Below are positions 1-30,126 of a stretch of DNA of 64,000 bases, in pieces. The notes below the pieces were generated by a model. The model saw only the letters and a list, made by a program, of their open reading frames with translations. It was not told where the DNA came from and searched no databases. Source of the stretch: an uncultured Bacilli bacterium (GTDB lineage: Bacteria; Bacillota_I; Bacilli_A; RF39; UBA660); contig CAKOMS010000001.1 of NCBI GenBank assembly GCA_934096735.1, positions 29,948-93,947 of the forward strand, written 5' to 3'. How positions within the stretch are numbered: position 1 is the stretch's first letter; each line of letters starts with the position of its first letter. The position numbers and the translations under genes are program-made.

Positions 1-862
1 TAATGTAATTAATTTTGAATCTATTGATAATAGTAAAATAAAAATATATACAGAAAATAATGAATATAATTTAAATTGTTATGATCCAGTTGATTATCCA
101 ATTATAAATTTAGATGAAAGTAAAGAACCTATTACTATGAAAGGTAAAGTATTTAAGCAAATTATTAATGAAACTTCTTATGCTGTATCTACTCAAGAAG
201 TTAGACCTCTTTTAACTGGTATTAATTTAAAAATTAATGGAGATATGTTAGAGTGTATTTCAACTGATTCTTATAGACTTGCTAAGAAAAATGTTAAATT
301 AAGTGGATTTGTTAATAATCAAGTTAATATTGTAATTCCTGGAAGAAGTATTAATGAACTTGAAAAGATACTTGGTGATGATGATGATGATTTAATATTA
401 CATATATTTAATAATAAAATATTATTTAAGTATAAAAATTTAGAATTTCAAACTAATTTATTAAGTGGAACATATCCAGATACAAATCATTTTATTCCAA
501 ATGAATTTGCATACATTATTAATTTAGATTTAAGGAGTTTTAATGATGCAGTTGATAGAGCTAGTTTACTTGCGCAAAGTAAAGATAAAAATATAGTTAG
601 GGTTTTAATAGATGATAAAAATATGATTATATCATCAAGCGCTTCTGAGATTGGTAAAACTGAAGAAAAATTAAATATAGAATGTAGTAACAAAGAAAAA
701 TTAGAAATTGCATTTTCTTCAAGATATATGTTAGAAGCTTTAAAAGTTATTAAAGATGAAAATATACTTTTACTTATAAATAGTGATGACAAACCTATAC
801 TTATTAAATCAGTGAAGGATGATTCATTGGTAGAACTTATTTTACCAGTAAAAACTTATTAA
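1..862 (+). CDS. dnaN: DNA polymerase III beta sliding clamp, 3' portion (N-terminus lies upstream of the window; open frame from nt 2)
   Basis: Frame is open from position 2 with no stop; the translation ...IDNSKIKIYTENNEY...KGKVFKQIINETSYAVSTQEVRPLLTGINLKINGDMLECISTDSYRLAKK... is typical of DnaN domains II-III; dnaN-recF-gyrB-gyrA synteny. Confidence 0.9.
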   Translation, partial: NVINFESIDNSKIKIYTENNEYNLNCYDPVDYPIINLDESKEPITMKGKVFKQIINETSYAVSTQEVRPLLTGINLKINGDMLECISTDSYRLAKKNVKLSGFVNNQVNIVIPGRSINELEKILGDDDDDLILHIFNNKILFKYKNLEFQTNLLSGTYPDTNHFIPNEFAYIINLDLRSFNDAVDRASLLAQSKDKNIVRVLIDDKNMIISSSASEIGKTEEKLNIECSNKEKLEIAFSSRYMLEALKVIKDENILLLINSDDKPILIKSVKDDSLVELILPVKTY

Positions 863-961
863 TTTATAAAGAAATCTTAAAATTTAAAAGGTTTCTTTTT
901 TTTCGACAATTTTTTTATATTTAATGTGTTATAGTAGAAAATAATTTTTTAGGGGGAGTAT

Positions 962-1411
962 ATGAATTATTTTATTAATAGTAGTACTGTAGCGCTTTTA
1001 AAAGATGGAAAGAAAACAATAATATACGATGTTGAAAAGTCAGTAGTTATTAACAAAAGTATTAGAAGTATAATTGAATTTAATTGTAATTATTATGGAC
1101 ACTCGGTAAATGGAACTAAGAAAGCAATTAAGAAATTATTGAATATCAAATACAGAGTTCCAATAGTAGTATCTATAAGTAATAATTATACATTAATACC
1201 GGTAGGAAATATAAGAAATGATATGTGTTTGTTTTTAGTTACAAGTAAAATTATTGATTATGAAAAATGTAATGATTATCTTGAAATAAATTGTGTAAAT
1301 AATAATAAATTTAAAGTAAATTTTTCGATAAATAGTTTTGAAAAATTATTAATTAATTCGATTAGAATAAATAATTTATTAATTAGTAGAAAAAATAATA
1401 ATTATGTTTAA
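962..1411 (+). CDS. ComK-family protein (competence transcription factor-like)
   Basis: 149 aa; alignable by eye to B. subtilis ComK: NSSTVALL~NGATIAVL, IIEFNCNYYGHSVNGTKKA~IVDRSCRFFGSSYAGRKAG, KYRVPIVVSISNNYTLIPV~KPPIMVDPSNQIFLFPT, INSFEKLLINSIRI~ISYNSFENQVYRTAWL; good RBS (agggggag) 5 nt upstream. Confidence 0.55.
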   Translation: MNYFINSSTVALLKDGKKTIIYDVEKSVVINKSIRSIIEFNCNYYGHSVNGTKKAIKKLLNIKYRVPIVVSISNNYTLIPVGNIRNDMCLFLVTSKIIDYEKCNDYLEINCVNNNKFKVNFSINSFEKLLINSIRINNLLISRKNNNYV

Positions 1412-1500
1412 AATATAGTTATTTTGTGATATAATTAACTTAGGTATAGGAGTACTTGAAATACCATTATATTAAATATACATCAAAAGAAAGGTTAATT

Positions 1501-2589: not shown

Positions 2590-4521
<1,932 letters not shown>

Positions 4522-4534
4522 GGAGGTATGAATT

Positions 4535-6967
4535 ATGCATCATGAGAGAGATAGATTGCAAGAAAATGATATAGTAAATGAAATTGAAACTTCTTTTATT
4601 GAATATTCTATGAGTGTTATAGTATCACGTGCTTTACCAGATCTAAGAGATGGTTTAAAACCTGTTCATAGAAGAATATTATGGAGTATGTATGAGTCTG
4701 GTTATACGCCTGATAAGCCACATAAGAAGTCAGCTCGTATAGTTGGAGATGTTATGGGTAAATATCATCCACACGGCGATTCTAGTATATATGAAGCGAT
4801 GGTAAGAATGGCACAAGACTTTAACTATACTATTCCACTTATTGATGGACATGGTAATTTTGGTAATATAGCTGGTGCTCCAGCTGCTGCTATGAGATAT
4901 ACTGAATCTAGATTATCTAAGATATCATTGGAATTACTTAGAGATATTAACAAAGATACTGTTAATTTTGGACCTAATTTTGATGAATCTGAAAGAGAAC
5001 CTGAGATATTACCATCAAGATTTCCAAATATATTAGTAAATGGAACAATGGGAATTGCTGTTGGTATGGCAACAAATATTCCTCCACATAATTTAGGAGA
5101 AGTTATTGATGGTTGTGTAGCTTATATAGATAATCCAGAGATTGATACTTTAGGATTAATGCAATATATAAAAGGACCAGATTTTCCTACTGGAGGTACT
5201 ATTTTAGGAAATAGTGGTATTAAAAAAGCTTATGAAACTGGTCGAGGTAGTATTACTATAAGAAGTAAGGCTACCATTGAAGAAAAAGATGGAAGGCATT
5301 ATATCATTGTTAATGAGGTTCCTTATGGAGTTAATACCTCAGAACTTAAGACTAAGGTAGCTGAGCTTGTTCACAATAAAGTTATTGATGGAATAGCAGA
5401 TTATCACACTGATTTAAAAAATGGTGTAAAAATAACTATTACTTTAAAGAAAGATGCTAATCCACAAGTTGTTTTAAATAATTTGTATAAACACACTCAA
5501 TTTCAAACAAGTTATAGTATAATACTATTAATGATTGATAATAAAGTTCCTAGAACTTTAGGTTTGAAAGATATTATTTCTAAATACATTAATTATCAAG
5601 AAGAAGTAATTATCAGAAGAACGAAATTTGAACTTGATAAAGCACTTAAAAAGGTACATATTTTAGAAGGTTATAAGATAGCTTTAGATAATATTGATGA
5701 TTTTATAAAAATTATTAAAGAATCTGAAACAGATTTAATTGCAAAGCAACAATTAATTAATAAATATTCTTTAACTGAAATTCAAGCGGATAGTATCTTA
5801 GAATTAAAATTAAGAAGATTAACTGGTCTTGAAAGAAATAAAATTGAAGAAGAATTAAAGGATTTATTACAAAAAATTGAAGAATATAAGGCTATATTAG
5901 CATCTAGAGAAAGAATTTTAAGTATTATTAAAGAGGAATTACTTGAAATTAAAGCAAAATATGATGTAGATAGAAGAACTAATATAGATATGACAGCAAT
6001 AGAATATATTGAAGATGAGTCACTTATTCCTGAAGAGGATGCAATGGTAGTTCTAACAAATAAAGGATATATTAAGAGAACAACTAATGATACTTTTAAG
6101 GTACAAAATAGAGGTGGTGTTGGAGTTAAAGGTGTAACAACAAATGATGAAGATTTTGTTGAACATTTAATTAATTTATCAACTCATGACTATTTGATGT
6201 TCTTTACAAATAAAGGAAAAGTATATCGTTTAAAAGGTTATGAAGTTCCTGAGTTTAGTAGACATTCAAAGGGATTGCCAATAATTAATTTACTTCAAAT
6301 AGATAAAGATGAAAGAATTAATTCAATGGTTAAAGTTACTAAGGAAGAAAAGGCAAAATATTTATTATTTGCGACGAAGAAAGGTATTGTTAAGAAAACC
6401 TTAATACAAGAATTTGACAGTATTAGATCATCTGGAAAAATATGTATTAATCTTTCAGAAAATGATGAGCTTATTGATGTTAAGAAAACATATGGAGATA
6501 GTTTAGTTCTTCTTGGAAATACTAATGGAAGAATGGTTAAATTTAACGAAAATGAAATTAGACCAATGGGAAGAACTGCTACTGGTGTTAAAGGTATTAA
6601 TTTAGACGGTGGCAAATGTATTTGTTGCGAAGTTGTTTCTGAAGAATCAATGATATTACTTGTTACAGAAAAAGGTTATGGAAAAAGGACTAAAGTAAGT
6701 GAATTTAGACAAACAAAACGTGGTAGCAAAGGCGTTCTTGCTTTAAATATTACTAATAAAAATGGTTCTTTAGTTGCTTCTAAAATTGTTGAAGAAGATA
6801 AAAACGCTATTATAATGAGTAATTCTGGTATAACTATTAAATTACCAGTAGATCAAATTTCAATTTTAGGTAGAGTTACTCAAGGTTTAAGATTAATTAA
6901 CCTTAAAGATAATCAGATTGTGGCAACAGTAAGTATTGTTGAAAAAATTGAAAATATTGAAGAATAA
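4535..6967 (+). CDS. gyrA: DNA gyrase subunit A
   Basis: 810 aa; AAMRYTE active-site Tyr motif; C-terminal beta-pinwheel repeats. Confidence 0.97.
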
Positions 6968-6975
6968 TTTTAAAA

Positions 6976-7004
6976 AAATATTTCCCGGGAAATATTTTTT
7001 TTGT
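6976..7004 (+). terminator. Rho-independent terminator of gyrA (stem is the 22-bp palindrome AAATATTTCCCGGGAAATATTT followed by T8); doubles as NBS-like copy a
   Basis: Perfect palindrome immediately after the gyrA stop, followed by tttttttt. Confidence 0.75.
6980..6993. promoter_or_regulatory. Noc-binding-site consensus ATTTCCCGGGAAAT (NBS copy a)
   Basis: Exact 14-bp match to the B. subtilis NBS consensus; 1 of 4 CCCGGG palindromes in a 27% GC window. Confidence 0.55.
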
Positions 7005-7074
7005 GTAATATTGAGTTAAGCTATATATTTTTAATAATTAAAAAAAAATATATATAATTGTAATTGTTAGAATT

Positions 7075-7088
7075 ATTTCCCGGGAAAT
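7075..7088. promoter_or_regulatory. NBS consensus ATTTCCCGGGAAAT (copy b)
   Basis: Exact 14-bp palindrome; extended palindrome TATTTCCCGGGAAATA 7074-7089. Confidence 0.55.
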
Positions 7089-7146
7089 ATTTCCGGTACT
7101 CATAAGGTCCTTAATTTTTAGAATGTTCGTTTTTTGTTCGTGTAAT

Positions 7147-7160
7147 ATTTCCCGGGAAAT
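7147..7160. promoter_or_regulatory. NBS consensus ATTTCCCGGGAAAT (copy c)
   Basis: Exact 14-bp palindrome inside the 20-bp palindrome 7144-7163; flanked by the 8-bp inverted repeat tccggtac(7092-7099)/gtaccgga(7180-7187). Confidence 0.55.
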
Positions 7161-7263
7161 ATTGTCCGATAACTATAATGTACCGGATTAAAAACATAGT
7201 CGAGTTACTAATACATTTAGCTTGTAGTATATTTATCAATATGCTCTATTTTTTAAATTGTTG

Positions 7264-7281
7264 ATGTTTCACGTGAAACAT
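7264..7281. promoter_or_regulatory. parS centromere site (ParB/Spo0J binding), 18-bp palindrome ATGTTTCACGTGAAACAT, copy 1
   Basis: Core TGTTTCACGTGAAACA equals the consensus bacterial parS. Confidence 0.8.
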
Positions 7282-7456
7282 TATGTTGAAAACAATTAAT
7301 TTAGAATTTAATTATTCTACTGCTTTTGCTTTTCAGATTTTAATTGTTGGTTTTTTGTGAAGTTATTGTTATAGAATATACTATTTTTATAAAAAATAAT
7401 TTTTTATATATAATGGTTATTTATAATTTGATTAATTTTTTTTAATATTAGATTTT

Positions 7457-7474
7457 ATGTTTCACGTGAAACAT
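7457..7474. promoter_or_regulatory. parS site copy 2 (perfect)
   Basis: ATGTTTCACGTGAAACAT followed by TGTGTTGATAAC. Confidence 0.8.
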
Positions 7475-7681
7475 TGTGTTGATAACTTTTGAATTGATCT
7501 ATATAACAATTTATTTATATAATATTTTGTTCGTTAATATTTAGCTTATATTTTTGAAACAATATATTTATTATTATATAATATTAAATTAAAAATATAC
7601 ATCAAGTACTTTTTTTATTATTAAATTTACTTATATCATTAATTCAGGTTGATTATTTAGTTTTTTTATAAATTATTTTTA

Positions 7682-7699
7682 ATGTTTCACGTGAAACAT
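7682..7699. promoter_or_regulatory. parS site copy 3 (perfect)
   Basis: ATGTTTCACGTGAAACAT followed by ATGTTGAAAAC. Confidence 0.8.
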
Positions 7700-7795
7700 A
7701 TGTTGAAAACTATTTTATGAATAATAACAAAAATCATATTTTTATTATTATTGTATTTAATTTTAAATTTGTTTTTTATATTTTAATTTACTTCA

Positions 7796-7813
7796 ATGTT
7801 TCACGTGAAACAT
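7796..7813. promoter_or_regulatory. parS site copy 4 (perfect)
   Basis: ATGTTTCACGTGAAACAT followed by TGTTGATAAC. Confidence 0.8.
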
Positions 7814-7955
7814 TGTTGATAACTTTTGAATTGATTTTTAAATTTACTTATTTATTGTTATATATTGTTTTGTTTGTTAACATTTAGCTTTTCTTTTTTA
7901 GTTTTTTTATTTATAATGACCTATTATTATGCATTTTTTATTAAAAATAATTTTA

Positions 7956-7973
7956 ATGTTTCACGTGAAACAT
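7956..7973. promoter_or_regulatory. parS site copy 5 (perfect)
   Basis: ATGTTTCACGTGAAACAT followed by TGTGTTAATAAC. Confidence 0.8.
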
Positions 7974-8059
7974 TGTGTTAATAACTAATTTTTTAAAATT
8001 TTAAATTTTTCATTTCTAAATAAAGGTATTTGTCCGGTGTGTTATTTATTACCGGAAAT

Positions 8060-8073
8060 ATTTCCCGGGAAAT
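8060..8073. promoter_or_regulatory. NBS consensus ATTTCCCGGGAAAT (copy d)
   Basis: Exact 14-bp palindrome; flanked by the inverted repeat tgtccg(8031-8036)/cggaca(8098-8103). Confidence 0.55.
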
Positions 8074-8106
8074 AATTGTCCAGTGTTCTTTAAACAGCGG
8101 ACAGGT

Positions 8107-8124
8107 ATGTTTCACGTGTAACAT
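8107..8124. promoter_or_regulatory. parS site copy 6 (one mismatch: ATGTTTCACGTGtAACAT)
   Basis: Single A->T change breaks the dyad symmetry. Confidence 0.6.
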
Positions 8125-17539: not shown

Positions 17540-18061
17540 TTGAATGGAGTGAGTAGTTTGATAAAAAGTGGAATTACCAGAAGAATTGATGAATTAGGTA
17601 GAATTGTAGTTCCAAAAGAAATAAGATTTAATTTAGGTATTAGAGAAGGTGATTCTTTAGAAATTTTTACAAAAGACAATGCTATAGTTATTAAAAAGTA
17701 TTCTGAAATAGAAAATATATTTGAGTTAAGTAATAAGTTATGTAAAATATTTTATGATATATGGGGATTATCTGTAATTATTACAGATAGGGATAAAGTA
17801 ATAGCTTGTAGTGGTAATTTAAATATTCAAGAAAAAAACCTACCTAATAATTTAAAAAAGATGATTGATAATAGAGAATCAATTTTTAATAAATATGATA
17901 AATTTTTTGAAATTGAAGGATATTTTACTATTTTACCTATTATAGTAGCATCTTCAGTTACTGGGTTTGTTATAGTAAATAGTAATAAAAATAATGAAGA
18001 TAATGTTATGAATGCTAAAATTATTCAAAAAATTATCTGTGAAAAAATTGATGTTTTATAA
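17540..18061 (+). CDS. spoVT: Stage V sporulation protein T (AbrB-family swapped-hairpin N-domain plus GAF-like C-domain)
   Basis: RRIDELGRIVVPKEIRFNLGIREGDSLEIF matches the SpoVT/AbrB N-domain; about 170 aa; follows mfd as in B. subtilis; alternative TTG start at 17558. Confidence 0.85.
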   Translation: MNGVSSLIKSGITRRIDELGRIVVPKEIRFNLGIREGDSLEIFTKDNAIVIKKYSEIENIFELSNKLCKIFYDIWGLSVIITDRDKVIACSGNLNIQEKNLPNNLKKMIDNRESIFNKYDKFFEIEGYFTILPIIVASSVTGFVIVNSNKNNEDNVMNAKIIQKIICEKIDVL

Positions 18062-18099
18062 GTTATGTTAATCTTGATTAGTTTTAATTCTTATGTTAC

Positions 18100-18308
18100 T
18101 ATACTTGTAGTTAACGAAGAATAAGTGTGGTAGATTAATAAGTTAAATAGAGAATTAGTGGTTGGTGGAAACTAATTAATAAGTTAATTGAGTATGAACT
18201 TAGGAGTTAAATCGGTGAGAATCGTTATAATCTAAAGTGTATGAATAAATTCATAAATTAAGGTGGTACCGCGGAAAATATTTCGTCCTTTGTTTATGAA
18301 TTTTTTAT
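18100..18308 (+). promoter_or_regulatory. T-box riboswitch leader, methionine-specific (specifier AUG-A at 18194-18197), with terminator/antiterminator
   Basis: Conserved T-box sequence AATTAAGGTGGTACCGCGG at 18256-18274; Stem I features AGAGA and distal loop GGTGGAAA; terminator helix aaattcataaat(18247-18258)/atttatgaattt(18292-18303) plus T-run; metG is downstream. Confidence 0.75.
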
Positions 18309-18320
18309 TTGGAGGTTTTT

Positions 18321-18944
18321 ATGAAAGCAATTGTGTTTGATTTAGATAATACATTAATTATTTGGAAAGATGAATATGTATCGGTATTAAAAAATATTTT
18401 ACCAAAATATATTCCTAATATTAGTGATGAAAAAGCCATTGAAATTAATAAATGTTTGGATGATTATGAGAATGTGATTGATGAGTTAAGTCGTGAAAAA
18501 TTACTTTTTTATATTAATAATAAATGTAAATTAAATTTAAGTATCGATTTTATTGATGAACTTATAAAAGGGCAACGAATGTGCTTTCAAGAAGATAAAA
18601 AATTAGAAGAAGTTATTAAATATTTAGCAAGTAAATATGATTTGTATGTGGTGTCTAATTGGTTTACAGAAACACAAGAAGGAAGGCTTGAAAATGTTGG
18701 AGTTTTAAAATATTTTAAAAAAGTATATGGTGCTGATGTTAATTATTTGAAACCTGATATTAGAGCATTTAAATCTATTTTTGATAAATATTCTAGTAAT
18801 TCTGTAATTTGTGTAGGAGATTCATTAAATAATGATATTTTACCAGTATTAAAATTAGGTGGAAGAGCTATTTGGATTTCAGATAGTGAATCTAATAAAT
18901 ATGAAACTATTCATAGTATATATGAATTGGAGGATTTACTATGA
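18321..18944 (+). CDS. HAD-superfamily hydrolase
   Basis: Motif I FDLDNTL; ORF track start 18309 is an alternative TTG; ATG 18321 follows RBS ggagg. Confidence 0.75.
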   Translation: MKAIVFDLDNTLIIWKDEYVSVLKNILPKYIPNISDEKAIEINKCLDDYENVIDELSREKLLFYINNKCKLNLSIDFIDELIKGQRMCFQEDKKLEEVIKYLASKYDLYVVSNWFTETQEGRLENVGVLKYFKKVYGADVNYLKPDIRAFKSIFDKYSSNSVICVGDSLNNDILPVLKLGGRAIWISDSESNKYETIHSIYELEDLL

Positions 18945-19432
18945 ATGGTAGATCTTTTGAAAAAGTAAGTTTTGAAGAATTTAAAAAAACTATAAAAGAT
19001 GATAAAGAATTATATAATAATTATTTGTTACCTTCTAGAAAAACAAAATATAGTGCTGGGTATGATTTAATTTCTATATTAGATTATAGTATTGAACCTG
19101 GAGAGAGATTATTAATTCCAACAGGATATAAAGCAAAATATTTAGATGATGAAATGCTAATGATAGTTGTTAGAAGTAGTGTTGGTGTTAAATATAATGT
19201 GAGGCTTTCTAATCAAGTAGGAATTATTGATAGTGATTATTACAATAATCCTAGTAATGAGGGCCATATATTTGTTTCTTTAGCAAATGAAGGTAATGAA
19301 ACATTTTATATAAAAAAAGGAACAGCTTATGCACAAGGAATATTTGTTAAATACTTAACTTGTGATGATACTGTTATACCAGATAGAGTTGGTGGTTTTG
19401 GAAGTACAAATAGAAAAGAGGAAGAAAAATGA
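18941..19432 (+). CDS. dut: dUTP diphosphatase (trimeric dUTPase family)
   Basis: Motif GIIDSDYYNN (dUTPase motif III), about 160 aa. Confidence 0.7.
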   Translation: MNGRSFEKVSFEEFKKTIKDDKELYNNYLLPSRKTKYSAGYDLISILDYSIEPGERLLIPTGYKAKYLDDEMLMIVVRSSVGVKYNVRLSNQVGIIDSDYYNNPSNEGHIFVSLANEGNETFYIKKGTAYAQGIFVKYLTCDDTVIPDRVGGFGSTNRKEEEK

Positions 19433-20952
19433 AAGAAAAATTTTATATAACAACTCCAATATATTATCCTAGTGCTGAATTTCATATTGGACATTGTTAT
19501 ACAACTATAATAGCAGATGCTATTGCAAGATATAAAAGACTTGCAGGATATGATGTTTATTTTCAAACTGGTACTGATGAACACGGATTGAAAATTGAGA
19601 CAAAAGCTAAAGAAAAAGGAGTAACTCCTAAAGAATATGTTGATGTTATAATTGATAATGCAAAAGATTTATGGAAAAGTTTAAATATTTCATATGACTT
19701 TTTTATAAGAACTACTGATGAATTTCATGTTCGTAGAGTTCAAAAAATATTTGAAAAGTTATATGAAAAAGGTGATATATATAAGGGAGAGTATAAAGGA
19801 TTATATTGTGTACCATGTGAATCATTTTGGACTGAAACACAAGCTGTAGATAATAAATGTCCTGATTGTGGTAGAGATGTTACAGTTGTTACAGAAGAAG
19901 CTTATTTCTTTAAATTAAGTAAATATCAAAAAAAATTGGAAGAATTTTATGAACAAAATCCTAATTTTATAAGTCCTGTATCTAGAAAGAACGAAATGTT
20001 AAATAATTTTATAAAACCTGGATTAGAAGATTTATGTGTGTCAAGAACTAGCTTTAAATGGGGAATACCTGTATCTTTTGATCCAAATCATGTTATTTAT
20101 GTTTGGATAGATGCTCTTAGTAATTATATTACTAGTTTAGGTTATCCAGAAGATGATAAAAAGTTAAAAAAATATTGGCCTGCTGATTTACATTTAGTTG
20201 GTAAGGAAATAGTAAGATTTCATACAATTATATGGCCTGCTCTTCTTATGGCTTTAGATTTACCACTTCCTAAGCAAGTTTTTGGACATGGTTGGTTAAT
20301 TATTGATGGCGGAAAAATAAGCAAGAGTTTAGGCAATTATAAAGATCCTAGAGAGTATATTAATTCATATGGAGTAGATGCTGTAAGATATTTTGCTTTA
20401 AGAGAAGTACCATTTGGTAGTGATGGTAATTTTAGTGAAAGTGCATTAATTACTAGAACAAATGGAGATCTTGCTAATATTTTAGGTAATTTAGTTAGTA
20501 GAACAATTCAAATGGGAATTAAATACTTTAATGGGGAAGTAGAAAATAAAAATGTTTCCGAAAAAATAGATGAAGATTTAATTAATAGTACATATAATTT
20601 GAAAGATCTTGTTGATGAGAAAATGAATGAATTTAAAATTAATGAAGCTTTAGAATTAATATTTGATGTACTTAGAAAATGTAACAAGTATATTGATGAT
20701 ACAACCCCATGGATTCTTGCAAAAGATGAAAATAATTTAGATAGACTTGAAACAGTTATTTATAATTTATTAGATAGTATTAGAGTTTGTGCAACACTTT
20801 TAGATGCATTTATTCCTGAGACTAGTGAAAAAATATTTGATGGATTAAAGATATCTAAACAAACATTTGATGATATTAATAAAAAAGTAAATAAATATAG
20901 TTTGGGATTAGTTAAACCTGATAACTTATTTGAACGTATTAAGGAGGATTAA
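19429..20952 (+). CDS. metG: Methionine--tRNA ligase (short form, no C-terminal tRNA-binding domain)
   Basis: HIGH-type motif (EFHIGH), KISKS (KISKSLGN), Zn knuckle CVPCE...CPDCG. Confidence 0.95.
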   Translation: MKEKFYITTPIYYPSAEFHIGHCYTTIIADAIARYKRLAGYDVYFQTGTDEHGLKIETKAKEKGVTPKEYVDVIIDNAKDLWKSLNISYDFFIRTTDEFHVRRVQKIFEKLYEKGDIYKGEYKGLYCVPCESFWTETQAVDNKCPDCGRDVTVVTEEAYFFKLSKYQKKLEEFYEQNPNFISPVSRKNEMLNNFIKPGLEDLCVSRTSFKWGIPVSFDPNHVIYVWIDALSNYITSLGYPEDDKKLKKYWPADLHLVGKEIVRFHTIIWPALLMALDLPLPKQVFGHGWLIIDGGKISKSLGNYKDPREYINSYGVDAVRYFALREVPFGSDGNFSESALITRTNGDLANILGNLVSRTIQMGIKYFNGEVENKNVSEKIDEDLINSTYNLKDLVDEKMNEFKINEALELIFDVLRKCNKYIDDTTPWILAKDENNLDRLETVIYNLLDSIRVCATLLDAFIPETSEKIFDGLKISKQTFDDINKKVNKYSLGLVKPDNLFERIKED

Positions 20953-21713
20953 TGTTTGTAGATTCTCATTGTCATTTGTTTAGTGAATATTATGATGATA
21001 TTAATGAAATAGTCGAAAATTCTAGTTCTAAAGGGATAAGTTATTTAATTAATAATGGATGTAATTCAAAGAGTAATAAAGAAATTATTGATTTAATAAG
21101 TAAATATAAAAATATGTATGGTGCAATTGGTATTCATCCAGAAGATGTTGATAATTATTCTTTAGACGATATTAATTTTATAGTTAATAATTTAAATAAT
21201 AAAAAAATTATTGCTATTGGTGAAATAGGATTAGATTATTATTATACAAAGGAAAATAAAGATAAACAAATTGAATTATTTGAAAGACAATTAGAAATTG
21301 CAGAACACAAAAATATTCCTGTAATAGTTCACTCTAGAGATGCTACTCAAGATACAATAAATATATTAAAGAAATATAAAGTAAAAGGTGTTATTCATTC
21401 ATTTAGTGGTTCAAAAGAAACTGCTAAAGAGTATATTAAAATGGGATTTTTGTTAGGTATAAATGGGGTTATAACTTTTAAAAATTGTAATATTAAAGAT
21501 GTATATAAAGAAATTGGTTTAAATAATGTTATATTTGAAACTGATTCTCCTTATCTTACACCAGTACCTTTTAGAGGTAAGAAAAATGATCCTAGCAAAA
21601 TAATTGATATAGTAGATTTTATTTCTAACGAGTTTAGTATACCTATTCAAGAGTTATCAAAAATTAGTAATAAAAATGTACAAGATGTGTTTGGAATTAA
21701 TGTTGAAAAGTAA
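20952..21713 (+). CDS. tatD: TatD-family metal-dependent DNase/hydrolase
   Basis: MFVDSHCHL, GEIGLDYY motifs. Confidence 0.9.
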   Translation: MFVDSHCHLFSEYYDDINEIVENSSSKGISYLINNGCNSKSNKEIIDLISKYKNMYGAIGIHPEDVDNYSLDDINFIVNNLNNKKIIAIGEIGLDYYYTKENKDKQIELFERQLEIAEHKNIPVIVHSRDATQDTINILKKYKVKGVIHSFSGSKETAKEYIKMGFLLGINGVITFKNCNIKDVYKEIGLNNVIFETDSPYLTPVPFRGKKNDPSKIIDIVDFISNEFSIPIQELSKISNKNVQDVFGINVEK

Positions 21714-21732
21714 TATGTTTTCAACATTTTTT
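21701..21732 (+). terminator. Rho-independent terminator after tatD (tgttgaaaa/ttttcaaca stem plus T6)
   Basis: Hairpin spanning the stop codon followed by a T-run. Confidence 0.65.
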
Positions 21733-21741
21733 GAGCAAATT

Positions 21742-21770
21742 TTGACAAATAAATATATGTTATGTATAAT
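21742..21770 (+). promoter_or_regulatory. Consensus sigma-A promoter (TTGACA-17-TATAAT)
   Basis: Perfect hexamers: TTGACA 21742-21747, TATAAT 21765-21770. Confidence 0.7.
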
Positions 21771-21794
21771 TTAATTGTAGAAAGTGATGATTAA

Positions 21795-22337
21795 ATGAAA
21801 AGTATGATTAATAAATTAAGTAAAAGTATTATAATTTTATTTATTGTTGTTATTTCTACTAGTTATGTTTATGTAATAGAAACTAAAAGTCAAAGTGATA
21901 ATATTAATAAAACTGTTAATCTTTCTACAATGGCATTAAAAGTAGAAGAGTTTGAAAAAAATAATATATATAGAGCAAAAGATACTTTTACTGGAGATTT
22001 AACTGGATATGTTTTTAATTGTCCTTTATGTTCTGGAAGACTTGCTTGTAAATCTAGTTATGATATAACTGATGGCAGAGATTATTATGATGATGAATTA
22101 TACGGAAGAGTAAAAATAGTAGCATCTTCTAGTAATTTACCATGTGGTTCAATTATTAGATTTAATTCTTCAAGAGTGAGTTCAGATCCAGTAGTTGCAA
22201 TTGTATTAGATCGTGGTGTAAGAGGAAATTCTTTAGACTTATTAACTACAAGTTTAAATTCTGCTTATACTTTAGGTAGAAGTGTTATTTCTTATGATGT
22301 TTTAAGAAAAGGGTGGAGTTTTTCTAATGAAAGCTAA
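21795..22337 (+). CDS. 3D-domain protein (YabE-like, MltA/Rpf-type barrel) with N-terminal TM segment
   Basis: C-terminal 3D-domain motifs (RVKIVASSSNLPCGSIIRF...VAIVLDRG); same position as yabE between tatD and rsmA in Bacillus. Confidence 0.65.
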   Translation: MKSMINKLSKSIIILFIVVISTSYVYVIETKSQSDNINKTVNLSTMALKVEEFEKNNIYRAKDTFTGDLTGYVFNCPLCSGRLACKSSYDITDGRDYYDDELYGRVKIVASSSNLPCGSIIRFNSSRVSSDPVVAIVLDRGVRGNSLDLLTTSLNSAYTLGRSVISYDVLRKGWSFSNES

Positions 22338-23112
22338 AAAAAGTTTAGGGCAAAATTTTTTAATAGATTATAATATAATTGATAAAATATGTGATTGTAT
22401 AAATGCTAAGGAAAATGATTTAATAGTTGAAATTGGACCTGGTATGGGAGCCCTTACTAAAAAGTTAAGAGAAAAAAAATGTATGCTAATTTGTTATGAA
22501 ATAGATGAAGATATGCATAAATATTTAGATAAATATGTAGATAGTTATACTAAAATTATTTTTAAAGATATATTATTATCAGATGTTTTAGAAGACATAA
22601 AGGATATTAAATATAATAGATTATATGTTGTAGGAAATTTACCTTATTATATAACAACACCAATAATTAAAAGACTAATTACTTTAAATTTAAATGCAAG
22701 TGAAATGATTTTTATGGTACAAGATGAAGTTGCTGATAGATTTACTGCTCATTGTAGGTCTAAAGAATATGGTAGTATAACATTATATTTAAAATATTAT
22801 TTTGATGTAGAAAAGTTATTTAATGTTAGTAAAAAATGTTTTAATCCAGTACCTAAAGTTGAAAGTGCAATTATAAAATTTACTAAAAGAAAAGATAAAT
22901 TAGATGTTTTAGAAGAAAGTTATTTTAAATTAATTAATGATGCTTTTAGAATGAAAAGAAAAAATATTAAAAATAATTTAATAAATTACGATTTAGATAT
23001 AGTAAAAAGTGTACTAAATAAATATGGATATGATTTAAGTAGTAGAGCAGAAGAATTACCTGAAGAAGTTTTTATAGAGTTATGTAATGAACTTAGTAAA
23101 AAAAATCATTAA
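22327..23112 (+). CDS. rsmA: 16S rRNA (adenine1518/1519-N6)-dimethyltransferase RsmA/KsgA
   Basis: SLGQNFL N-terminus, EIGPGMGALT SAM motif. Confidence 0.93.
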   Translation: MKAKKSLGQNFLIDYNIIDKICDCINAKENDLIVEIGPGMGALTKKLREKKCMLICYEIDEDMHKYLDKYVDSYTKIIFKDILLSDVLEDIKDIKYNRLYVVGNLPYYITTPIIKRLITLNLNASEMIFMVQDEVADRFTAHCRSKEYGSITLYLKYYFDVEKLFNVSKKCFNPVPKVESAIIKFTKRKDKLDVLEESYFKLINDAFRMKRKNIKNNLINYDLDIVKSVLNKYGYDLSSRAEELPEEVFIELCNELSKKNH

Positions 23113-23194
23113 AATACATGATAGTTATAATCTTGTATTTTTTTGTTTTTCTTCTATTTTTATAGAAATAACATATAATTTAATGGTGATTTGA

Positions 23195-23971
23195 ATGGAT
23201 TTTAAAGTAGGAGATTATGTAACTAGGAAAAGTTATAATAATGATACTGTATTTAAAATAATTAATATTGTTTCTGATATTGCTTATTTAAAAGGTACTG
23301 AAGTTAGATTATATGCAGATAGTGATTTAAGTGATTTAATAAAGTGTGAAGTGCCTAGAGAAGATAAATTTTTTGAAGATGAAGTTAGAGGAAATAAAAT
23401 AACTGAAAAAGATGATTATTTTTACTTACCTGGTAAAATATTACATATTGATGGCGATGAAGAGTATTTAGAAAAGTGTTTAAAATTTTATAAAAGTTCT
23501 GGTGTTTATGCAATTGGCAAAAAAATAAAAGAAGAAAATATGTATGAACAAATACCACTTCTTTTAAAAGAGTATAAACCTGATATTATTATTATTACTG
23601 GACATGATGCATATTATAAGAAAAAAGGAAGTATAAAAGATATTAATAACTATAAAAATACTAAGTTTTTTATTAAAGCAATTAAGTCTGCTAGAAGTTA
23701 TGAAAAAAGTCATGAGAAGTTAGTTATTATAGCAGGTGCTTGTCAAAGTAATTATGAAGAACTTATTAAAGCTGGGGCTAATTATGCAAGTAGTCCTAAA
23801 AGGGTTAACATTCATGCTCTTGATCCTGCAATAATTGCTGTTACTGTTGCACTTACAGAAAGAAGTAAAGCAATTGATTTAAAAGGATTGTTAGAACTTA
23901 CAAAGTATGGTAAGGATGGTATGGGTGGCATAATGGGTAATGGTATTATGTATGTGGGGTATCCTAGATGA
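23195..23971 (+). CDS. yabG: Sporulation-specific protease YabG (peptidase U57)
   Basis: Conserved YabG core (IIIITGHDAY, IIAGACQSN); rsmA-yabG-veg synteny. Confidence 0.8.
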   Translation: MDFKVGDYVTRKSYNNDTVFKIINIVSDIAYLKGTEVRLYADSDLSDLIKCEVPREDKFFEDEVRGNKITEKDDYFYLPGKILHIDGDEEYLEKCLKFYKSSGVYAIGKKIKEENMYEQIPLLLKEYKPDIIIITGHDAYYKKKGSIKDINNYKNTKFFIKAIKSARSYEKSHEKLVIIAGACQSNYEELIKAGANYASSPKRVNIHALDPAIIAVTVALTERSKAIDLKGLLELTKYGKDGMGGIMGNGIMYVGYPR

Positions 23972-24180
23972 ATATAGATTTAATAAGAGAAAAAATTGAA
24001 TCAAATATTAATAAAAGAGTAATAGTTACACATTATGGACTTAGAAATAAAATTAATAGATATGAAGGGGTTTTATATAAAACGTATCCAAATATATTTT
24101 CAATAATAAGTGATGGAGTAGAAAAAAGTTTTTCTTATAATGATTATATTACAGGAGATATAAAAATAAAATTTTTTTAA
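23968..24180 (+). CDS. veg: Veg protein (biofilm/sporulation-associated small protein)
   Basis: 70 aa; similar to B. subtilis Veg (ILETYPNIFSI...SFSY...I). Confidence 0.75.
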   Translation: MNIDLIREKIESNINKRVIVTHYGLRNKINRYEGVLYKTYPNIFSIISDGVEKSFSYNDYITGDIKIKFF

Positions 24181-24252
24181 AATTTATTGAATAAATTAGT
24201 AATATATTATAAAATGGTGTTAAGTTGTGATAAACATGATAGGAGTGATAAT

Positions 24253-24516
24253 ATGGAAATTACAGAAGTTAGAATTCACAAAGCAAATGGGGATGGTTCA
24301 AAGTTAAAAGCTTATGCAACAGTAACTATCGATGATTGTTTTTTAATAAGCAACATTAGAATTATACAAGGAGAGAATAGATTATTTTGTGCTATGCCAA
24401 GTCGTAGACTTGCTGATGGACGTTTTGATGATATAGTTCATCCAATGAATCAAGAAACTAGAGATTTATTTGAGTCAAAAATTTTAGATAAATATAAAAA
24501 AGAAATTGCTGAATAA
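24253..24516 (+). CDS. spoVG: Septation/sporulation regulator SpoVG
   Basis: MEITEVRIHKANGDGSKLKAYATVTIDDCFLISNIRIIQGENRLFCAMPSRR matches SpoVG; ATG 24253 with RBS aggag (ORF track starts upstream at 24187). Confidence 0.9.
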   Translation: MEITEVRIHKANGDGSKLKAYATVTIDDCFLISNIRIIQGENRLFCAMPSRRLADGRFDDIVHPMNQETRDLFESKILDKYKKEIAE

Positions 24517-24611
24517 TTGTTAATTATTAGATTATTTAGAACTGCTAGATTTTACTAGTGGTTTTTTTGTTATATTAAATATGTTATTACATATAATTTA
24601 ATGGAGGAATT

Positions 24612-24902
24612 ATGGAAAGTAATAATGATATTAAAACTTATGGAAGTCATGAAGTAAAATTAGTTGATAGAAATATTTTAAACATGAATGGGATAAATAA
24701 GATTATTTCATTTGATGAAGAAGAATTTTTGATGGAAAGTGTTATGGGGAGTATTGTGCTTAAAGGGGAAGGATTAGAACTTATAAAACTTGATAATCAT
24801 GATGGTAGTATTAAAATAAAGGGAAAGATTAATAGTATTGCTTATGTTGTAGATAATAAAATTAAAGATAAAGAATCATTTATACAAAAGTTATTTAAAT
24901 AA
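24612..24902 (+). CDS. yabP: Sporulation protein YabP
   Basis: 96 aa; YabP family (HEVKLVDRNILNMNGINKIISFDEEEF...); followed by yabQ and divIC as in Bacillus/Clostridia. Confidence 0.8.
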   Translation: MESNNDIKTYGSHEVKLVDRNILNMNGINKIISFDEEEFLMESVMGSIVLKGEGLELIKLDNHDGSIKIKGKINSIAYVVDNKIKDKESFIQKLFK

Positions 24903-25204
24903 TGAATAGTGTTAATCAAATCATTTCCTTTATTGTTTCATTTTTGTATGGTTTTATATTTTTTTTGTTAACGAAGGTTAATTTTTATTTAATAGAGCAA
25001 TTAAAGAACATAATAAAAAATATTATTACAGTTGTTTTTGTTTTAGATATGATTTTTTTGTATATATTAATTTTATATAAAATTAATGGTGGATACTTTC
25101 ATATTTATTTTATTGTTACAGTGGTGTTTGGTTATATAATATCTTTTGGTTTTTATAAAAAGTTTTTTAGTAAAATTAATGTAAAACATATTTTTAAACA
25201 TTGA
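24902..25204 (+). CDS. yabQ: Spore cortex biosynthesis protein YabQ-like (3-TM small membrane protein)
   Basis: Position directly after yabP, overlapping stop/start; hydrophobic 100 aa. Confidence 0.5.
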   Translation: MNSVNQIISFIVSFLYGFIFFLLTKVNFYLIEQLKNIIKNIITVVFVLDMIFLYILILYKINGGYFHIYFIVTVVFGYIISFGFYKKFFSKINVKHIFKH

Positions 25205-25254
25205 TTTATTAAATGTTTTGTGATATCTCTTTTATAAGAATGGAATGTTGAAAG

Positions 25255-25557
25255 ATGGCTAAAAAGACTAGTAGAAAAGAAAAAAAGAGATTAGTAATTA
25301 TTAGTTTTGCAATAATTTTATTGCTTATTGTTTTAGTTGGTAGTGTTTATAGTGATTGGAAAGAAATATTAAAAAATAGAAAAAATGAAATTGAACTTAA
25401 AAATAAGTATGAAGAGTTACTTGATAATGAAAAAAAGTTATCCGCTGAGATAACTAAATTAGAAGATGATTCTTATTTGGCAAGGTATGCAAAAGAGAAA
25501 TTTATGCTTAGTAATGAAGGAGATACAATTATAATGATGGACGATAAAGATAAGTAA
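25255..25557 (+). CDS. Septum formation initiator (FtsB/DivIC family)
   Basis: N-terminal TM plus coiled coil; synteny yabP-yabQ-divIC. Confidence 0.6.
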   Translation: MAKKTSRKEKKRLVIISFAIILLLIVLVGSVYSDWKEILKNRKNEIELKNKYEELLDNEKKLSAEITKLEDDSYLARYAKEKFMLSNEGDTIIMMDDKDK

Positions 25558-25568
25558 TTGTCCATTTT

Positions 25569-26144
25569 TTATTTTTCAATTATTTTATCAATTAATCCAT
25601 ATTTTAATGCTTCTTCAGGATCCATAAAATTATCTCTTTCGGTATCATTTTCAACGGTTTTTAAATCTTTATTTGTGACATTTGCAAGTATTTTATTAAG
25701 TTTATTTTTTGTTTTAATAATTCTATCTGCTGCTATTTTTATATCTGTTGCTTGCCCTCCTGCTCCTCCAAGTGGTTGATGAATCATTATTTCGGAATTT
25801 GGTAAGCTATATCTTTTACCTTTAGTACCATTTGCAAGTAAAAATGCTCCCATTGATGCACATTCTCCTATACATATAGTTATAACGTCACTTTTAATAT
25901 AATTCATGGTATCATATATGGCCATTCCACTTGTAATTGATCCACCAGGAGAATTGATATATAAATATATATCTTTTTTATTTAAACTGTCTAAATAAAG
26001 AAGTTCGGACACTACAATTGATGATAATGCATCATTTATTTCTCCAGTAATAAACACTATTCTGTCATTTAAAAGTCTTGAGTATAAATCATATGCATAT
26101 TCTTTATTACTACTTTTTTCTACTACTGTTGGAATTATATTCAT
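25569..26144 (-). CDS. clpP: ATP-dependent Clp protease proteolytic subunit
   Basis: Catalytic triad context GECASMGAF (Ser), IMIHQPLGG (His); 191 aa. Confidence 0.95.
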
Positions 26145-26245
26145 TTTCTCACCTATAATTATAATATATAAAATAGTAAGTTTTTATTCAAAAATTTTTT
26201 TATTTATGTTAGAATTAGTTTATAAAGATAGTAAAGGGGTCTTTT

Positions 26246-27889
26246 ATGGAAAAAGTTGTTATTGAACTCGATACTGGTTCTAAGAAAGAATTTAATAAGA
26301 ATACTACTTACTATGATATTAGTAAGGGGTTTAATATGGATAATATTTTAGGGGTTAAAATTAATAATGAATTTCATGAACTTTCAGAAAGATCAAATAA
26401 AGATGAAAAAATTACTTTTGTTGATATTAATGACTTAACAGGTTATAAAGTATATAAGAGTGGACTTATGTTTATATTTGAAGTTGCTTTAAAGGAAGTA
26501 TTTCCTGAATGTAATATTCTTTATCAACATAGTGTACCGAAAGGTTTTTTAGGAGAAATTGTTGGAGATAAGATTCTTACTCAAGATGATTTATCCAAAG
26601 TAAAAGAAAGAGTAGCTAAAATAGTAAATGAAAATAAATGTTTTAAGAAGTTAAATATTAAGAAGAAAGAAGCAATTGCATTTTATTTAAAAAACGGAGA
26701 AATAGAGAAAGCTAATAATATACAAAATATTAGTGATAAAGTTGTAACTTTATATGAACTAAATGGTAGATATAATTATTTTTATAGTGATATGCCTTAT
26801 AGTACTGGTTTTATTTCTAAGTATGATATTGTTTATTTAGGCAGAAATAGATTAGTTTTTGTAATACCTAGTAAGGAAAGTAATGGAATGCTTCCTGAGT
26901 ATGTACATTATGATAATATAATTAATTCATTTTTAGTAGGTAAAGATTGGTTAGAAACATTAAATATGAATTATGTAACTAGTTTAAATAAAACTATTGC
27001 TAATGGAAAAATACAGGATTTTATTAAGTCTTGTGAACTAGTATTTAATTTGAATATTTCTAAAGTAGTAGAAAAAGTTACTAATAATAGAAATATAAAA
27101 TTTATTTTAATAGCAGGTCCTTCTTCTAGTGGCAAAACTACTTCTACTAAAAGATTATCGTCATATTTGTTAGCATATGGGTTTGATCCTGTAAAACTAT
27201 CTTTAGATGATTTTTTCTTAGATAGAGAAGATTGTCCTAAAGATGAAAATGGTAATTATGATTTTGAATGTTTAACTGCTATAGATTTAGATTTATTTAA
27301 TAATACTTTAGAAAAGTTACTAAATAAGGAAGAGGTAAGTATACCTACATTTAATTTTGTAAGTGGTAAAAAAGAATATGATAATAAGAAAATAAAATTA
27401 AAGGATAATAGTATTATACTTATTGAAGGTCTTCATGCATTAAATGATGAGTTACTTCCTAGTATAGATAATAAATTTAAGTACAAAATATATTTAAGTC
27501 CTTTTATTCCATTAAATATTGATAAACAAAATTATATATCTACTATTGATCTTAGATTGATTAGAAGAATTGTTAGGGATAATAGAACTAGAGGTTATAA
27601 AGTAAATACTACAATACATAATTGGCAAAGTGTTAGAAATGGTGAAGAAAAGTATATATTTCCTTATATACATCAAGCAGATACTATTATTAATACAGCT
27701 TTACCATATGAAATTGGAGTAGAAAAAATATATGCTGAACCACTACTTAGAAGCATTAGTGTAGAAAGTGTATATTACGAAGAAGCTAGAAGATTATTAA
27801 ATTTTTTAAAAATGTTTTTTCCTATTCCAAGTGAATATGTTAATATGGACTCAATTATTAGAGAATTTATAGGAGGTAATGATGATTAG
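26246..27889 (+). CDS. TGS-domain/uridine kinase-family fusion protein (nucleoside kinase)
   Basis: N-terminal ThrRS-like TGS domain; C-terminal PRK/Udk P-loop IAGPSSSGKTTSTKRL. Confidence 0.65.
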   Translation: MEKVVIELDTGSKKEFNKNTTYYDISKGFNMDNILGVKINNEFHELSERSNKDEKITFVDINDLTGYKVYKSGLMFIFEVALKEVFPECNILYQHSVPKGFLGEIVGDKILTQDDLSKVKERVAKIVNENKCFKKLNIKKKEAIAFYLKNGEIEKANNIQNISDKVVTLYELNGRYNYFYSDMPYSTGFISKYDIVYLGRNRLVFVIPSKESNGMLPEYVHYDNIINSFLVGKDWLETLNMNYVTSLNKTIANGKIQDFIKSCELVFNLNISKVVEKVTNNRNIKFILIAGPSSSGKTTSTKRLSSYLLAYGFDPVKLSLDDFFLDREDCPKDENGNYDFECLTAIDLDLFNNTLEKLLNKEEVSIPTFNFVSGKKEYDNKKIKLKDNSIILIEGLHALNDELLPSIDNKFKYKIYLSPFIPLNIDKQNYISTIDLRLIRRIVRDNRTRGYKVNTTIHNWQSVRNGEEKYIFPYIHQADTIINTALPYEIGVEKIYAEPLLRSISVESVYYEEARRLLNFLKMFFPIPSEYVNMDSIIREFIGGNDD

Positions 27890-28886
27890 AGTTGCAATAA
27901 ATGGTTTTGGTAGAATTGGCAGAATAGCGTTTAGAGAAATCGTGACTAGTAGTGATTTTGATATTATTGCTATTAATGATTTATCTAATGCTGAAGAGTT
28001 GGCACATTTAGTTAAATATGATACTGTTCATAGAAGTTTTCATGAAGAAGATATTACTAGTGAAGGTGATGAAATAGTCATATTAGGTAAAAAGAGAGTT
28101 AAAGTATATGCAGAAAAAGATCCGGCTAATTTACCATGGAGAGATTTAAATATTGATTTGGTACTTGAGTGCACGGGTGCATTTACTAATGTTGAAGATG
28201 CTAGAAAACATATAGTAGCTGGTGCTAAGAAGGTTTTAATAAGTGCTCCAGGTAAGGGTAATCTTAAGACTGTTGTATATGGTGTTAATGAAAATATTTT
28301 AGATGGAACTGAAGATGTGGTATCTGCATCAAGTTGTACTACTAACTGTCTTGCTCCAGTACTTAAAGTATTGAATGATAATTTTATTATTAAAAAGGGA
28401 TTTATGAGTACTATTCATGCTTTTACTAATGATCAAGTTACATTAGATATTACACATAAAAAGGGAATTAAAGCGAGAAGAGGAAGAAGTGCTAGTCAAA
28501 ATATCATTCCTGCAAGTACAGGAGCGGCAAAATCAATTGGTTTGGTTATTCCTGAATTAAATGGAAAAATTGATGGATCTAGTTATAGAGTACCTGTAGC
28601 AGATGGTTCTTTAATTGATGTTACACTTGAATTTGAAAAAGATCCAAGTATTGAAGATATAAATAATACTTTTACATCTAATCAAAGTGATGCTATCAAA
28701 ATAACTATGGATCCTATTGTATCAAGTGATATTATTGGTAAAAGGTATGGTGCTTTAGTTGATGGGCTTCTTACTAATAAAGTTACTACTGATACTGGTA
28801 ATTTATATAAAGTAGTAGCTTGGTATGACAATGAGCTTGGTTATACTGTTCAAATGTTAAGAGTAGCTAAATGTATGTTTAAATAA
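27879..28886 (+). CDS. gap: Glyceraldehyde-3-phosphate dehydrogenase
   Basis: NGFGRIGR NAD motif, active site SCTTNCLAP. Confidence 0.95.
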   Translation: MMIRVAINGFGRIGRIAFREIVTSSDFDIIAINDLSNAEELAHLVKYDTVHRSFHEEDITSEGDEIVILGKKRVKVYAEKDPANLPWRDLNIDLVLECTGAFTNVEDARKHIVAGAKKVLISAPGKGNLKTVVYGVNENILDGTEDVVSASSCTTNCLAPVLKVLNDNFIIKKGFMSTIHAFTNDQVTLDITHKKGIKARRGRSASQNIIPASTGAAKSIGLVIPELNGKIDGSSYRVPVADGSLIDVTLEFEKDPSIEDINNTFTSNQSDAIKITMDPIVSSDIIGKRYGALVDGLLTNKVTTDTGNLYKVVAWYDNELGYTVQMLRVAKCMFK

Positions 28887-28888
28887 TT

Positions 28889-28912
28889 GTTAACTATATG
28901 TTAACTTTTTTT
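28889..28912 (+). terminator. Rho-independent terminator after gap (GTTAAC-tatat-GTTAAC plus T-run)
   Basis: 6-bp stem plus T7. Confidence 0.5.
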
Positions 28913-28955
28913 CTTTTTTGTGTAAAAAAAATATATTATGATAAAATTATATTAG

Positions 28956-30107: not shown

Positions 30108-30126
30108 TTAGAGGTATTTTTAATTA

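Follow-up and report, generated by a model that had tools for sequence, protein, structure and literature searches.

The competence regulator ComK of Bacillus subtilis is a protein of 192 amino acids (aa) that ends in a disordered stretch (residues 158-192). After removal of 35 residues it neither activates transcription nor shows cooperativity between boxes, although its dimers can still occupy a single box (bioRxiv 10.64898/2026.03.17.710445). The tail also contains the MecA/ClpC degron FMLYPKEERT... (PMC8138137), and ComK lacking 25 C-terminal residues retains DNA binding but loses comG activation (PMC3128618). The naturally short ComK2 of Bacillus cereus, which lacks 22 C-terminal residues, reduces comG expression (PMC3128618), and ComK2 of Staphylococcus aureus comprises three helices and nine strands without the extra C-terminal helix of ComK1 (PMC12491500). 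This study concerns a ComK-like gene situated between dnaN and recF in a 64,000-nucleotide (nt) stretch of an uncultured RF39 Bacilli bacterium (contig CAKOMS010000001.1, positions 29,948 to 93,947), which is hereafter called the window. The gene is an ATG-initiated open reading frame (ORF) at 962..1411 on the + strand, and its 149-aa product consists of the folded core of ComK without the C-terminal tail. We regard it as probable, although well short of certain, that this product is a tail-less, core-only DNA-binding regulator of the ComK family, preceded by a Spo0A-type promoter and fixed in the gene cluster of the replication origin.

The family assignment was examined with profile and sequence searches. 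In the Pfam search, the ComK model PF06338 matched the 149-aa product with 59 bits (E 6.2e-16, model positions 3-147 of 152), compared with a gathering cut-off of 22.3 bits, and the same model was found in all close homologs of the protein. The S4 domain was absent from the product in this search even at E values of up to 10, and the NCBIfam search revealed nothing significant and no family model. BLASTP against P0277, the Bacillus cluster representative on which the Bacillus reference alignment was anchored, yielded 26% identity over 131 residues (E 3e-13). P0277 is designated "competence transcription factor ComK" of the B. subtilis group and is 97% identical to what we take to be the sequence of B. 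subtilis ComK. Alignment of profiles with hhalign agreed: the clade of the window protein aligned with Bacillus ComK over 141 columns corresponding to canonical residues 9-154 (99.4%, E 5.1e-21), and a more typical group of short homologs aligned over residues 9-159 (100%, E 3e-46). The original prediction had recognised ComK by eye and had named PF06338 as the model to search with; the significant ComK match, together with the lack of an S4 (yaaA) match, confirms it. The gene product is thus a member of the ComK family. Some of these proteins from metagenome-assembled genomes (MAGs) already carry the name "competence protein ComK" in NCBI source names, and the names of the cluster members were limited to "Bacilli/Firmicutes bacterium" MAG labels.

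The predicted structure was consistent with this assignment. An AlphaFold model based on 129 homologs had a mean predicted local distance difference test score (pLDDT) of 96.6 and a predicted template modelling score (pTM) of 0.89, and its nine strands and three helices constitute the ComK core fold. Searches of PDB sequences with the single protein and with the profile found no ComK structure. The best fold matches in the PDB were LytTR DNA-binding domains, namely that of B. cereus 3d6w (E 3.9e-3, probability 1.00) and that of ComE (4cbv). A 2026 preprint likewise groups ComK with AgrA-LytTR by fold (PMC13232269), although the window protein differs from LytTR regulators in having neither a Pfam LytTR match nor a receiver domain. 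Because the whole folded ComK domain is kept, dimeric DNA binding of the kind known from the ComK core is most likely for this protein.

The missing tail is the principal difference from B. subtilis ComK, whose folded core is homologous throughout to the window protein. The alignments with ComK ended at approximately canonical residues 154-159, which is the end of the folded core, and the C-terminal tail (canonical residues ~158-192), with its disordered region, FMLYPK-type MecA/ClpC degron, and activation region, was absent. The degron pattern [FILMV][MILV]LYP[KR] had no match in the window protein; it was found in none of 251 short homologs, compared with 44 of 60 long ones. When 1.84 billion representative proteins (50%-identity clusters) were searched with the profile, 728 matched at E <= 1e-3, of which 212 reached E <= 1e-10; among the 150 matches listed, most were 140-159 aa long, and proteins of 188-196 aa appeared only from approximately E 1e-14.

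The closest described counterparts of such a protein are the short ComK2 proteins, and this likeness rests on their published descriptions rather than on a sequence comparison. The window model has the same architecture of three helices and nine strands as S. aureus ComK2 (PMC12491500), and B. cereus ComK2 is likewise a core without the C-terminal extension (PMC3128618). However, the two ComK2 proteins are second copies that accompany a full-length ComK1 and have not been reported at the origin, whereas the short ComK of the window type occupies a fixed place between dnaN and recF and was the sole copy encountered in the loci examined. To judge from truncated B. subtilis ComK and short ComK2, a protein without the tail would be expected to escape MecA/ClpCP-ComS control and not to build the cooperative tetramer on two boxes that works as a switch; it may be a simple activator, or it may repress.

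We further analyzed the position of the gene. Eight close homologs (E <= 1e-3, 44-99% identity) were identified, all derived from metagenomes or MAGs, and every one with a readable context exhibited the order dnaA, dnaN, ComK-like gene, recF, gyrB, gyrA. Full-length orthologs were all approximately 145-155 aa long and shared 23-58% identity; three of the more typical short members, with 23-30% identity to the window protein, also lay between dnaN and recF. A RecF-based scan of a collection that represents each species by a single genome identified nine relatives, comprising rabbit-gut "uncultured Bacilli" MAGs and Candidatus Coprovivens, which belongs to the family CAG-1000 of the GTDB order RF39 (PMC8035907). 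In eight of these nine, a ComK-like ORF was directly 5' of recF. The ninth (locus L009) carried an IS30-like transposase ORF, recognised by eye, at 223-1587 on the - strand upstream of recF, where the ComK-like gene was expected. A similar IS30-like ORF, also recognised by eye, lay downstream of the ComK-like gene in locus L136 (3512-4696, - strand), and recF was missing there.

Eighty metagenome loci with the more typical short members were also retrieved. The dnaN gene was directly upstream in 51 of 64 testable loci, recF was directly downstream in 45 of 59, and both neighbors were in place in 37 of 52. The exceptions included three loci with an insertion between dnaN and the gene and three without recF. 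The insertions, with ORFs of ~100, 126, 233, and 600 aa, were located at 2128-2864 in L137, 2199-2897 in L148, and 998-2797 in L160. Approximately ten loci formed a second group, in which a short ComK gene lay beside the NAD-dependent DNA ligase gene ligA and gatCAB. In the ligA-linked loci L111, L114, L119, L124, L134, L146, L161, and L169, the ComK gene was located at approximately position 3000, and in several of them an inverted repeat (AATTATAATTT...AAATTATAATT) lay upstream, immediately ahead of the ribosome-binding site (RBS).

The same gap is occupied differently in other Firmicutes. In four loci from the RecF scan (Lachnospiraceae, Solobacterium, a Veillonellaceae MAG, and another Bacilli MAG), the gap contained an ORF of approximately 70 aa, and the three of these ORFs that were scanned all carried the Pfam domain S4_2. 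This result agrees with the original prediction, which named yaaA as the occupant of the gap in Bacillus. YaaA/RlbA shares the slot, the strand, and the small size with the ComK-like gene, but the two are unrelated in fold and family (S4_2, PF13275, versus ComK, PF06338). Because S4_2 proteins occupy the gap in other Firmicutes and ComK-like proteins occupy it in this lineage, the ComK-like gene appears to have replaced yaaA in an ancestor of the RF39-type Bacilli and to have stayed there since. A relocation of yaaA was considered and rejected, as tblastn of the window and 18 lineage loci gave no match better than E 0.1.

The position is kept across the whole lineage; the origin-side location is thus an ancestral, lineage-wide trait of RF39-type uncultured Bacilli. 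A ComK-like gene at the origin had been regarded as unexpected; the gene is indeed present there, but as a feature of the lineage rather than a local surprise. The B. subtilis comK locus, by comparison, is far from the origin. The literature search found no paper that connects ComK with dnaN/recF synteny or that deals with a ComK from RF39. The presence of the gene is not in itself evidence of DNA uptake by the organism.

The 99-nt spacer between dnaN and the ComK-like gene contained, in order, an AT-rich inverted repeat with a T-run, the heptamer TTCGACA, a 21-nt spacer, an extended -10 element, and a strong RBS. The inverted repeat (868-876 with 890-898, followed by the T-run; 868..903, + strand) was recognised by eye and is possibly a weak dnaN terminator. 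The terminator scan was silent here because the repeat has too few G-C pairs; clearer terminators with a hairpin and T-run were present at the end of dnaN in relatives. TTCGACA (902..908, + strand) is the reverse complement of the Spo0A "0A box" TGTCGAA and lies 21 nt 5' of the -10 hexamer. The extended -10 element TGTTATAGT (927..935, + strand) and the Shine-Dalgarno-like sequence AGGGGGAG (951..958, + strand) were read from the sequence. In relatives, TATGTTATAGT or TGnTATAAG was kept at the corresponding place, and GGAGG or GGGGG was kept before the start codon. The consensus promoter scan did not report this promoter because its -35 spacing is 21 nt. The gene would accordingly be read as a separate transcription unit, with an extended -10 element and a Spo0A-type box that keeps a constant helical register at this unusual spacing.

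To evaluate the significance of the heptamer, its frequency was compared with that in background windows. TTCGACA occurred in 34 of 65 unique dnaN-ComK intergenic regions and in 42 of 4843 background windows, an enrichment of about 60-fold, and all 37 copies in the upstream regions had a single orientation. Related k-mers were 135- to 280-fold enriched in the upstream regions, the spacing from box to box peaked at 10 and 20 nt, and the boxes were phased 11, 21, or 31 nt from the -10 hexamer. Many relatives had two or three tandem boxes. The exact heptamer had only three copies in the window, and one of them was at the ComK promoter. In three relatives, a Noc-binding site lay immediately 5' of the Spo0A-type box of the ComK promoter.

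The window also encodes Spo0A itself. The spo0A start codon is at 30248, and the product carries the Spo0A_C and receiver domains (Pfam). Boxes phased by 10 bp were found approximately 120 nt 5' of this start (30120-30200), comprising TTCGACA at 30127, which is another of the three exact copies and opens the run, TTTGACA at 30137, and TTTACA- and TAGACA-like repeats. This arrangement suggests autoregulation of spo0A as in B. subtilis. Tandem 0A-like boxes were counted over the window, and the single pair found was that upstream of spo0A (one, with 1.13 expected); as this number does not exceed chance, the pair is suggestive solely by where it lies.

Spo0A-activated sigma-A promoters such as those of spoIIG and spoIIE typically have a spacing of 21-22 nt, and the extended form TTYGACAAA matches the consensus TTTGTCRAA for Spo0A derived from chromatin immunoprecipitation. 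In B. subtilis, Spo0A~P directly binds five boxes at PcomK and gates competence (PMC3297582), and the window gene resembles B. subtilis comK in having Spo0A-type boxes at its promoter. The extended -10 element and the phased boxes suggest that the ComK-like gene is probably controlled by Spo0A~P, which is the best-supported reading of these motifs and under which Spo0A would bind at 902..908. By analogy with B. subtilis comK, Spo0A~P would probably switch the gene on or off at stationary phase or at entry into sporulation.

Several observations weigh against a Spo0A-controlled, DNA-binding ComK regulator. The match to the LytTR fold was weak (E 3.9e-3, TM 0.42-0.59, with the values of 0.55-0.59 for 3d6w normalised to the target). 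The hallmark motifs of ComK (C-x2-[YF]-G-S-S-x2-G-R, [HY]-K-x-P-I, F-F-P-T-x-S-P-x3-C-x-W, and N-Q-x-L-R) are only partly kept: the window protein retains C42, G46, K65, and P67, whereas GSS is changed to GHS, GR to GT (T52), FFPTxSP to LIPVGNIR, CxW to CLF, and NQxLR to EKLLIN. Residue 52 (nucleotides 1115-1117) is Thr in the window protein and its 99% identical twin; the Arg of the GR motif is present in more than 90% of the 129 family members and is mostly kept by the other members of the window clade. These altered residues suggest that the DNA specificity, or even the DNA binding, of the window clade may have changed. The window protein has also evolved much faster than its neighbors, with 23-53% identity to relatives compared with 50-68% for RecF and 66-86% for GyrB, and it belongs to a fast-evolving offshoot. 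At the promoter, the exact heptamer was present in only about half of the loci, and the window has a single box. A related reading of the repeats as DnaA boxes is kept as a minor alternative; exact DnaA boxes occurred in 6 of 65 regions, and by eye the repeats fit TGTCGAA far better, so that this candidate was rejected as the main explanation. Finally, no conserved K-box was found upstream of the ComK-like gene or recF in the intergenic regions compared, and no com gene was recognised by eye among the ORFs of at least 90 aa in the 64-kb window.

The fast evolution relative to the neighbors and the loss of hallmark residues would also be compatible with a decaying or functionless comK remnant in a shrinking genome. 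This explanation is extremely improbable. An intact ORF of constant length was found in every relative examined, and 24 alignment columns were invariant among the nine clade members. The promoter and RBS are conserved, the fold is predicted very confidently, and the gene has been retained in a reduced genome of ~25% GC.

A different explanation is that the protein is a true competence master regulator like B. subtilis ComK, which would activate comG, comE, comF, dprA, recA, and ssb and render the organism transformable. Membership in the ComK family agrees with this idea, as does the finding that the more typical origin-linked short proteins keep all of the canonical motifs (YEIN, SCxYFGSSxxGR, HKxPI, FFPTxSPxxxCxW, and NQxLR). 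The Spo0A-type boxes would parallel the direct control of B. subtilis comK by Spo0A~P (PMC3297582). The place near the origin recalls comCDE of Streptococcus pneumoniae, whose competence regulator genes lie beside the origin; stalled replication raises their copy number, and this dosage under replication stress induces competence (PMC8394987). However, comCDE belongs to a different protein family and circuit, and a dosage effect for the window gene would be speculative.

The results on the ComK boxes did not support a master regulator. The motif AAAA-N5-TTTT occurred 37 times in the window, with 30.7 +/- 5.5 expected by chance, which is the chance level, and a single AT-box at 938-950 was neither paired nor conserved in relatives. 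A conserved K-box was rejected as a feature of the lineage: intergenic half-sites were enriched only in comparison with mononucleotide shuffles, and their positions were never paired and not conserved. Many intergenic copies, as judged by eye, lay in A- or T-tracts flanking inverted repeats. B. subtilis comK, in contrast, is autoregulated through a K-box. The window protein additionally lacks the tail that B. subtilis ComK requires for activation, cooperativity, and MecA control; several of the hallmark residues of B. subtilis ComK are substituted in its clade, no com gene was recognised by eye among the ORFs of the window with 90 aa or more, and in other species short ComK2 proteins act as repressors or modulators of competence instead of driving it (PMC3128618, PMC12491500). 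We therefore consider a master regulator of this type unlikely. The step from ComK family membership to a competence master regulator in a competent organism, which the original prediction had raised, is unsupported, since the tail is missing and ComK boxes are neither enriched nor conserved, and the search for ComK boxes that it proposed gave only chance-level, unpaired copies without conserved positions.

With the tail, the degron, and K-box autoregulation all absent, we describe the protein as a tail-less regulator rather than as a master regulator of the B. subtilis type. The likeliest targets of such a tail-less regulator, judged by family precedent, would be DNA-uptake and recombination genes, although this assignment is tentative and has a less than even chance of being correct. 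A role as a repressor or modulator, like that of ComK2, is a serious alternative.

The ComK-like gene is followed by a conserved leader element of recF. The recF gene has its ATG at 1501 and extends to 2589 (+ strand; Pfam SMC_N), and it is followed by gyrB (2593..4521) and gyrA (4535..6967), both on the + strand. The promoter scan identified a TATAAT ending at 1435 and preceded by TG; this extended -10 element, TGATATAAT (1427..1435, + strand), is conserved in about 60 relatives and probably serves recF-gyrB-gyrA. A predicted hairpin, TAGGTATAGGAGTAC...ATACC (1441..1466, + strand), lies where the recF mRNA is predicted to begin and carries a Shine-Dalgarno-like AGGAG in its loop. The consensus of the element is TAGGTATAGGAGTAC-N3-6-ATACCTA-TATTTT with a U-rich tail, which extends to 1470 in the window and is found in ~55 loci (for example, 5499-5545 in L087). 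The 13-nt motif GGTATAGGAGTAC, with at most two mismatches, recurred just 5' of recF without a second close copy per locus and was absent from the Firmicutes loci of the yaaA type. In the hairpin, 82.5% of the cells were paired, compared with 31-49% in slid controls, and the outer pairs covary. A permissive Rfam search of 850-1520 found nothing. The element could be a 5' stabiliser of the mRNA, an attenuator, or a protein site.

These findings bear on the possibility that the ComK-like protein has a local role in chromosome maintenance, in which it would regulate or partner with recF-gyrB-gyrA, for example by way of the leader element, or other replication and repair genes and would no longer be linked to DNA uptake. 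The adjacency to dnaN and recF persists down to 23% identity, the second set of short ComK genes adjoins the DNA-metabolism gene ligA, and each locus has a single copy of the 13-nt motif and hairpin in the gap that separates the ComK-like gene from recF, an arrangement confined to this lineage. However, the cluster dnaA-dnaN-X-recF-gyrB is itself extremely stable, so that an inserted gene would be carried along without a functional link, and the co-occurrence is not separable from shared ancestry. The covariation of the leader pairs, including G-U, is more readily explained by an RNA hairpin than by a DNA operator for a protein, and the leader element is also kept in L009, where the IS30-like gene sits upstream of recF. 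A maintenance role of this type is quite unlikely.

The slot beside recF-gyrB-gyrA would place the ComK-like gene among the highest-copy genes of a replicating chromosome. A further possibility is that the protein belongs to a functionally distinct branch that is gated by Spo0A, possibly sensitive to copy number, and wired to replication or repair instead of forming a bistable competence switch. Its possible targets would be recF-gyrBA, through the leader element, or ligA in the sister group. We consider this possibility rather improbable; if true, it would tie the gene cluster of the replication origin to a developmental transcription factor, a connection not recognised before.

RF39 and its related orders comprise abundant gut bacteria that are uncultured, have reduced genomes, and lack genetic tools. 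For a tail-less ComK regulator in such organisms, the conserved gene is a candidate handle on DNA uptake, whereas the absent tail and K-boxes caution against assuming competence. The definition of a core-only subfamily, the replacement of yaaA, and the phased Spo0A-type boxes are the new points of this analysis. The core-only ComK proteins of ~150 aa constitute a large, coherent subfamily and are natural counterparts of the tail-deleted ComK used for studies of DNA allostery. The cluster dnaA-dnaN-X-recF-gyrB, which ranks among the most stable in bacteria, has exchanged its small middle gene in one lineage, and the phased boxes suggest that the link from Spo0A to comK in B. subtilis is old and portable.

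Several further features of the window were noted. The window starts inside dnaN, the 3' part of which (137..862, + strand) encodes the DNA polymerase III beta clamp (Pfam DNA_pol3_beta_2 and DNA_pol3_beta_3), and the recF product is 64-68% identical to RecF of the related loci L001 and L004. The GC content is ~21-30%, and the cumulative GC skew climbs monotonically, which is consistent with a leading-strand region just right of the replication origin.

Downstream of gyrA, six parS sites were found in 860 bp of noncoding DNA (7265-8123), with 0.03 expected by chance; the consensus sequences of parS and of the Noc-binding site were taken from PMC7383237. Five of the sites are perfect copies of TGTTTCACGTGAAACA and one has a single mismatch, constituting a dense, centromere-like cluster. 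Four perfect Noc-binding sites (TATTTCCCGGGAAATA; 6979-8074) are interleaved with it in the 1.2-kb gap after gyrA. Noc-binding sites are also present in the gyrA-tadA gap of relatives, and in one relative a copy precedes dnaA; positions noted in the relatives are 9922 in L001, 4715 in L004, 5385 in L007, and 2032 in L087. ParA, recognised by eye, and ParB, identified by Pfam, are encoded at 48043-49705.

Sporulation genes extend over 17540-31003 and include a spoVT-like gene (17540), yabG (23195), spoVG (24187), yabP/yabQ (24612-25204), and spo0A (30248), all in a genome of ~25% GC that is apparently reduced. RF39 is predicted to contain both sporulating and nonsporulating species (PMC10868615), and the sporulation genes of the window agree with this prediction. 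A T-box leader (18108-18293, 103 bits) precedes an operon with ORFs of 211 and 163 aa, and these ORFs are followed by a methionyl-tRNA synthetase-like gene at 19429-20952.

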